DNA of 64,000 nucleotides from Escherichia coli. Its GTDB lineage: Bacteria > Pseudomonadota > Gammaproteobacteria > Enterobacterales > Enterobacteriaceae. Positions within the stretch are counted from its first letter, which is position 1. Each line of letters begins with the position of its first letter. Below the pieces are notes generated by a model. That model made no database searches. It was given only the letters and a program-made list of their open reading frames with translations, and had not been told where the DNA came from. Positions 55,725-56,414 of this stretch are shown in pieces. The stretch lies in the NCBI RefSeq assembly GCF_013122565.1, contig NZ_CP053258.1. One strand, written 5' to 3'. A program made the translations under genes and the position numbers.

Positions 55725-55834
55725 CAGACATACCTCCGAAGCGTACTGCGCAGCCAGACAATTCTTGCGACGTCAGTTGTGGTTAAAGTTTAGCCACGCT
55801 GGGATTTTTTGACGAAACGGTGGGAGGCAGAAAT

Positions 55835-55948
55835 GGGTGGGGGCCCTGCCAGCTACATCCCGGCACACGCGTCATCTGCCTTGGCTGCTTCCTTCCGGAC
55901 CTGACCTGGTAAACAGAGTAGCGTTGCGGGAGAACCAACAGAGCCCCC
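55835..55948 (-). ncRNA. ffs: 4.5S RNA (signal recognition particle RNA)
   Basis: The reverse complement of 55835..55948 reads GGGGGCTCTGTTGGTTCTCCCGCAACGCTACTCTGTTTACCAGGTCAGGTCCGGAAGGAAGCAGCCAAGGCAGATGACGCGTGTGCCGGGATGTAGCTGGCAGGGCCCCCACCC, the 114-nt E. coli 4.5S RNA as I recall it. Confidence 0.92.
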
Positions 55949-56024
55949 ATTGAGAGCGTTGAGAACCAACGCGCAGGCGCATTATCACTGCTGCCCCGGC
56001 TAATTGCAACCCATTGCGTGCCAG

Positions 56025-56414
56025 ATGCTGGTTTCTTGCGCAATGCGGCTTCACTCGGGCGTTTTTCCAGATTATGCTGAAAAATTACCTCAGGAAGAAA
56101 AGATGGAAAAAGAAGATTCATTTCCCCAACGCGTCTGGCAAATCGTCGCCGCTATTCCCGAAGGCTATGTAACCACTTACGGTGATGTGGCGAAACTGGC
56201 GGGATCGCCCCGCGCCGCGCGCCAGGTGGGCGGTGTGTTAAAGCGTCTCCCCGAAGGCAGCACCTTACCCTGGCATCGGGTGGTTAATCGCCACGGCACA
56301 ATTTCGCTAACCGGACCGGATTTACAGCGTCAGCGACAGGCATTACTGGCAGAAGGTGTGATGGTATCGGGAAGTGGGCAAATTGACTTGCAGCGTTATC
56401 GCTGGAACTACTAA
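56025..56414 (+). CDS. atl: Alkyltransferase-like protein (O6-alkylguanine lesion sensor, no active-site Cys)
   Basis: The track ORF is extended (136 aa). The start is taken as MLVSCAMRLHSGVFPDYAEKL... (129 aa). Confidence 0.85.
   Translation: MLVSCAMRLHSGVFPDYAEKLPQEEKMEKEDSFPQRVWQIVAAIPEGYVTTYGDVAKLAGSPRAARQVGGVLKRLPEGSTLPWHRVVNRHGTISLTGPDLQRQRQALLAEGVMVSGSGQIDLQRYRWNY

Follow-up and report, generated by a model that had tools for sequence, protein, structure and literature searches.

The ffs gene for 4.5S RNA in a chromosomal segment of Escherichia coli and the chance open reading frame lying over it

The DNA segment described in this study is almost certainly the chromosomal ffs gene of an Escherichia coli-group bacterium, and the 112-codon open reading frame (ORF) that overlies this gene is, with the same near-certainty, a product of chance that encodes no protein. 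No evidence running counter to this reading was found in the analysis. The feature itself is already known, as it is an ordinary E. coli ffs. All positions given below refer to the window, i.e. the whole stretch of DNA that was analysed (64,000 nucleotides).

Identity, copy number and genomic surroundings of ffs

The mature 4.5S RNA (bacterial small SRP RNA, 114 nt) is encoded on the minus strand at 55835..55948, where the sequence read from 55948 to 55835 is GGGGGCTCTGTTGG...GGGCCCCCACCC. The assignment is based on identity with the gene of strain K-12 and on a match to the Rfam family RF00169. An earlier note, made from the letters of this DNA, had claimed a perfect 114-nt match to ffs at this place. 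This was borne out by the comparison with E. coli ffs, since all 114 of its positions agree with those of ffs, the annotated ncRNA of K-12 MG1655 (b0455, 476448..476561), with which the segment is also syntenic. The covariance-model search, on which the same note had staked its claim, gave a match to RF00169 (Bacteria_small_SRP, clan CL00003) at 55844..55940 (minus strand), with a score of 68.1 bits against a gathering score of 40. This match spans the whole model (positions 1-97 of 97), with E = 5.5e-13 for the whole window and E = 4.3e-15 for the local search. In RefSeq, the homologous position bears the label 'ffs: signal recognition particle sRNA small type'.

The gene order of the region (pdeB, ybaA, ffs, atl/ybaZ, ybaY) is the K-12 order (tesB, ybaY, ybaZ, ffs, ybaA, pdeB) reversed. 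The gene pdeB (53773..55329, plus strand) is followed by ybaA (55371..55724, minus strand), which is the downstream neighbour of ffs on the same strand and encodes a DUF1428 protein (PF07237, E = 2.3e-48; K-12 b0456). The divergent neighbour is atl/ybaZ (56025..56414, plus strand), encoding a DNA base-flipping, alkyltransferase-like protein (PF01035, E = 3.9e-27, covering residues 33-112 of its 129-aa form), and ybaY (56445..57017, minus strand) lies upstream of the ORF on the same strand. Compared with K-12 ffs (b0455), the sequence, neighbours, promoter hexamers, leader and hairpin are all the same and there is no difference within the gene; the flanks differ by about 1.5% (19 differences in 1115 nt; 98.5% identity over 3.5 kb). 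The ffs of Escherichia albertii is also identical to that of the window (114/114), with flanks that are only about 88% identical.

The 1.1 kb surrounding ffs was matched in 5424 of the 5426 complete E. coli genomes (in 5357 of them over at least 80% of its length), at a median of one place per genome, and the RF00169 match at 55844..55940 (minus strand) was the sole SRP RNA found by the Rfam scan of the window, which represents 64 kb of the genome. These counts bear on the possibility that the match represents not the working gene but a superfluous, inactive copy or a remnant, e.g. an attachment-site duplicate derived from an integrated element, as integration into ffs does take place elsewhere (Stutzerimonas urumqiensis, Enterococcus). 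However, the copy in the window is full length, identical to that of K-12 and equipped with a promoter and a leader, and its place, syntenic with K-12, is flanked by atl and ybaA. The surroundings contain no integrase, and the locus is found once per genome at the median. The attachment-site remnant was therefore rejected, the copy being full length, syntenic and preceded by its own promoter, and we consider the probability of this explanation to be practically negligible.

The case of S. urumqiensis deserves a separate description. In strain T3 (scaffold NZ_RBZQ01000004.1), two SRP RNA copies are located about 10 kb apart: a complete one (L109:2825-2946, plus strand) and a 5'-truncated one (L110:828-949, plus strand), which differs only in the first ~10 nt. 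A gene for a tyrosine integrase (PF00589, E = 2.3e-12; L109:3013..4458) begins 67 nt past the complete copy. The arrangement resembles a genomic island of about 10 kb that has inserted into ffs, and a parallel is the phage attachment site reported in the ffs of Enterococcus (PMC12540744).

In addition to the ordinary chromosomal ffs, Rfam searches of the window identified three other RNA elements, all on the minus strand: (i) the dnaX programmed -1 ribosomal frameshift element (38976..39040; RF00382, 96.8 bits, full length), which shows that the window includes dnaX, a gene to be expected in this part of the K-12 chromosome, (ii) the sRNA sroB (= ChiX/MicM) (25216..25299; RF00368, 82.1 bits against a gathering score of 44) and (iii) naRNA4 (CssrE, a REP-derived nucleoid-associated RNA; 30976..31053; RF02564, 80.7 bits against 59.5). 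A weak match to SNORD20 on the plus strand (56069..56137) was dismissed as a chance hit (19.8 bits against a gathering score of 43, E = 0.94).

With regard to the origin of the DNA, the best identity among 5,426 complete E. coli genomes was 98.8% over 24 kb (40000..64000) and 99.0% over 4.1 kb (53900..58000), and no complete E. coli genome in the collection exceeded about 99% identity over 1.1, 4.1 or 24 kb. These values, together with the identity of about 88% to E. albertii, indicate an E. coli/Shigella-group lineage without a near-identical complete genome in the collection. For the region 40000..64000, the median number of matching places was 18 per E. coli genome, so that short dispersed repeats must be present there, too.

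Structure and expression of the 4.5S RNA

The minimum-free-energy fold of the mature RNA is a single long hairpin (-57 kcal/mol, z = -3.15). Its apical part holds the conserved core of SRP RNA (domain IV, with a GGAA tetraloop), GGTCAGGTCCGGAAGGAAGCAGCC, located at 55883..55906 on the minus strand; read from 55906 to 55883, the core is present with both the tetraloop and the flanking internal loops (GGUCAGGUCCGGAAGGAAGCAGCC). The SRP RNA core plays a role in the binding of Ffh and FtsY, and the signal recognition particle, composed of Ffh and 4.5S RNA, targets nascent membrane proteins to FtsY and the SecYEG translocon. When genome contigs were scanned for the exact 24-mer, at least 120 loci were found, and among the matches listed, the unchanged 24-mer occurs in Proteobacteria, Actinomycetota, Bacillota, Chloroflexota, Planctomycetota and Thermotogota. 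One contig (CAMDRJ010000240.1) of a MAG labelled Klebsiella pneumoniae carries at its edge an SRP RNA that is very unlike enterobacterial ffs outside the 24-nt core, and this contig may be mis-binned.

Covariation was analyzed by counting the pairs of the E. coli hairpin on an alignment of 14 gammaproteobacterial sequences. Standard pairs were formed in 92.3% of the cells, against 37-50% in slid controls (3' partners moved by 1-3 columns), a comparison in which the hairpin is favoured over its slid versions on cells paired, because its structure was taken from the window's own fold. Compensatory changes on both sides were observed in 20 of the 42 pairs, and none of the 500 shuffles matched the observed value for any measure. 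A simple example is provided by Citrobacter, in which the two substitutions within ffs are the two sides of one pair, changed from G-C to A-U. The pair flanking the core also covaries over 103 cross-phylum sequences (CG in 39, GC in 28, UA in 26 and AU in 4). The long hairpin is thus maintained by compensatory change across the gammaproteobacteria, with strong covariation. RNAalifold, applied to a MAFFT alignment of the 103 cross-phylum sequences, recovered just 11 pairs of the core as a result of misalignment of the distal stem, and pair counting was used instead. Residue G83, which is linked to GTPase activation, is invariant in all 103 aligned sequences; a literature search retrieved no paper on the role of G83 together with the distal site of 4.5S RNA.

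A putative ffs promoter was located on the minus strand at 55981..56009, on the basis of its position and conservation. It is composed of a -35 hexamer TTGCAA (56009..56004), a 17-nt spacer and a -10 hexamer GATAAT (55986..55981), followed by a G+C-rich stretch. This was the only sigma-70-like site revealed by a promoter scan of 55300..56500, and both hexamers hold their position in K-12, E. albertii, Citrobacter, Enterobacter, Superficieibacter, Photorhabdus and Vibrio, in which the spacer diverges. It is therefore probable that 56009..55981 acts as the ffs promoter.

The location of this promoter touches on the start of atl. The K-12 annotation places it at the ATG at 56025 (129 aa), and one PGAP-annotated record at the ATG equivalent to 56104 (103 aa). 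Only 16 nt separate the start of the 129-aa form from the -35 hexamer of ffs, whose promoter points in the opposite direction. The stretch for the additional 26 aa, which may not be genuine, would thus overlap the promoter region shared by the two genes.

The 5' leader of the 4.5S precursor was assigned to 55949..55974 (minus strand) from the predicted fold and from the literature on its removal by RNase P. The predicted fold of 55800..55974 (minus strand) consists of a leader hairpin (55972..55956), a 6-nt linker and the 4.5S hairpin, and in 12 of 12 gammaproteobacterial loci a leader hairpin is predicted at the same place upstream of the mature 5' end, formed by different sequences. This conserved position would fit a processed precursor, and processing of the 4.5S precursor by RNase P has been described (PMC7049720). 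The transcription start of ffs would probably lie near 55972..55974, some 24-26 nt before the mature 5' end. The conserved promoter and leader hairpin are indirect support for the expression of ffs as a stable, processed RNA.

At the other end of the gene, a terminator scan detected no canonical intrinsic terminator downstream of ffs, and the fold of 55800..55974 contained no extra hairpin 3' of the RNA. For lack of a canonical terminator there, we infer that transcription stops at the 4.5S hairpin and the short U run after it, ACCCAUUU, and that trimming then removes a few nucleotides. Conservation between genera stops directly after CACCCATTT. A terminator candidate at 55957..55943 was rejected, as it straddles the leader and the 5' end of the RNA; 1.4 such sites are expected by chance.

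In the proposed course of events, the sigma-70 promoter at 56009..55981 (minus strand), recognized by position and conservation, would drive the synthesis of a short precursor, from which RNase P, judging from the literature, would take off the hairpin-containing 5' leader. The product, as its sequence identity shows, is the 114-nt 4.5S RNA (55948..55835). According to established knowledge, this RNA would form one long hairpin, whose conserved apical core would bind Ffh to give the signal recognition particle, and the particle would deliver membrane proteins still under synthesis to its receptor FtsY and to the SecYEG translocon.

Coding potential of the overlying open reading frame

The ORF overlapping ffs, reported in the earlier note as a 112-aa frame, does exist: the mechanical ORF list contains it at 55783..56121 on the minus strand, i.e. 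the same strand as ffs, with an ATG start and 112 codons. Starting at an ATG that precedes the ffs promoter and is antisense to the 5' region of atl, it crosses this promoter, the leader and the complete RNA and ends 52 nt past the RNA. The view that this ORF is spurious agrees with all lines of evidence collected below, namely the lack of a Pfam family, non-coding codon usage, the broken frame of E. albertii and conservation bounded by the RNA.

The opposite view would be that the 112-aa ORF is a genuine gene overlapping ffs in the sense orientation, within a dual-function locus expressed from a longer transcript, e.g. by read-through from ybaY, which is conceivable given that ybaY is located upstream on the same strand. 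In its favour, the ORF is intact, with its ATG start, in three E. coli-group sequences (the window, K-12 and strain GPEC389), although this observation weighs neither way, as the divergence among them is only about 1-1.5%. GenBank entries for the product also exist, though these are predictions only.

Codon usage was evaluated with a log-odds score, obtained from the 21 ORFs of the window with at least 300 aa versus their other five frames. The ORF scored -0.170 and all 21 long genes scored higher (0.092 to 0.528); the values for the neighbouring genes ybaA, atl and ybaY were 0.262, 0.139 and 0.235, respectively. Of 104 shadow ORFs (mean -0.234, sd 0.215), 41% reached at least the score of the ORF, whose codon usage is thus like that of non-coding frames. 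The lowest-scoring portion is that encoded by ffs itself (-0.367). Moreover, no Pfam family was found for the ORF product, even with E values up to 1.

Comparison with related bacteria gave the same picture. In E. albertii, in which ffs itself is identical, a TGA codon has arisen in the leader from a G-to-A substitution and cuts the frame to 59 codons. In Citrobacter, 49 codons are left from the first ATG, and the frame boundaries differ in Superficieibacter, Vibrio, Haemophilus and Pseudomonas. Over 113 loci, the median open span is 51 codons, the shortest among the three sense frames. In comparison with Citrobacter, Enterobacter and Superficieibacter, identity reaches 97-98% in ffs and 88-92% in the leader, against 60-78% in the 5' part of the ORF and 38-42% in its 3' tail, and indels of 1, 2, 5 and 8 columns were observed, none of which is a multiple of three. 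Conservation is therefore bounded by the edges of the RNA (ffs being 97-100% identical when E. albertii is included) and not by the ends of the ORF.

All of these results argue against a genuine gene: the codon usage, the missing Pfam family, the frame, interrupted in E. albertii and differently bounded in other genera, and the frame-disrupting indels and low identity (38-42%) in the part which the ORF alone would constrain. The signals for translation point in the same direction. Ahead of the ATG there is a single G-rich stretch, GGGGA, whose end is one base away from the start codon, and this spacing is too short for a usual Shine-Dalgarno sequence. Furthermore, ribosomes would have to pass the hairpin of -57 kcal/mol to translate one third of the ORF, and the PGAP records examined contain no call for it. 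A genuine overlapping gene is thus very improbable, and the 112-codon ORF exists because one of the sense frames happens to lack stop codons over the promoter, the leader, the RNA and the downstream spacer.

A variant of the protein-coding explanation assumes that a shorter ORF is translated from the unprocessed 4.5S precursor, with initiation at an internal ATG located across the RNase P site (55950..55948, caATGGGGGC). This ATG lies within the predicted precursor transcript, 59 codons are open in E. albertii, and a 51-aa version has been deposited (ESCAB7627_0206). On the other hand, the leader GCGUUGGUUCUCAACGCUCUCA offers no Shine-Dalgarno-like sequence upstream of the ATG, and the base of the -57 kcal/mol hairpin follows directly after it. 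The portion of the frame read from ffs has the worst codon score of all (-0.367), and the tail downstream of ffs is only 38-42% identical between genera. We regard such a short gene as highly unlikely. The same degree of doubt applies to the idea that the stop-free frame or its shorter form is occasionally translated from read-through or unprocessed transcripts, which would make this a dual-function locus for RNA and protein. The chance origin of the frame remains the preferred reading.

Database entries and consequences for annotation

Translations of this chance frame have entered public databases. GenBank contains 'hypothetical protein' entries from E. coli S88 (ECS88_0452), E. coli P12b (P12B_c0469), E. 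coli O25b:H4 (WLH_04542), Shigella dysenteriae WRSd3 (WRSd3_03293) and E. albertii (ESCAB7627_0206, a 51-aa truncated form), all of which belong to the 90%-identity cluster nearest to the translation from the window. A second cluster includes K. pneumoniae entries. The exact 112-aa translation from the window is absent from a collection of 15 billion proteins, in which the closest cluster is 97% identical. In total, relatives of the ORF constitute 37 clusters (63-193 aa), which mostly align to just 40-70% of the query, and a Pfam domain is present in only one of them, this being the DUF1428 of ybaA. Such a pattern of partial cover is that expected from an RNA gene translated in genomes with differing flanks.

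Several of these records bear unusual names or origins. The UniRef name of the E. albertii entry is 'Transposase', and one relative of the ORF is filed under a Caudoviricetes MAG. A 61-aa entry assigned to Staphylococcus aureus, originating from a contig of 551 bp, clusters at 90% identity or more with the E. coli ORF and is probably a contamination.

The existence of the GenBank entries upholds one half of a further claim of the earlier note, namely that an ORF-based annotation would call a hypothetical protein at this place; the other half, that the RNA would be missed, did not hold for the RefSeq/PGAP records examined, in which ffs is annotated and no CDS is present over the locus. The risk of a false call concerns naive or older ORF callers only.

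Spurious proteins of this kind, including those translated from non-coding RNA genes, are collected in AntiFam (Eberhardt et al. 2012, PMC3308159). The ORF shares with these artefacts its position over a conserved RNA gene, 'homologues' that are conserved only via the RNA, the lack of a real protein domain and the presence of public entries as hypothetical proteins. Given its overlap with the RNA, the absence of Pfam support, the non-coding composition and the unconserved frame, the ORF is an AntiFam-type artefact. The AntiFam publications examined (PMC3308159 among them) give translations of tRNA, rRNA and other genes and do not mention SRP RNA, and no AntiFam family specific to SRP RNA was found in a literature search.

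Since ffs and its 4.5S RNA are among the best characterised bacterial RNAs, the finding brings little that is new to biology. Its value concerns the quality of annotation, as it is a clean and documented case of one conserved RNA gene giving rise to a family of fake 'hypothetical proteins', whose apparent conservation follows from the conservation of the RNA. RNA genes should therefore be masked before ORF tracks are scanned.
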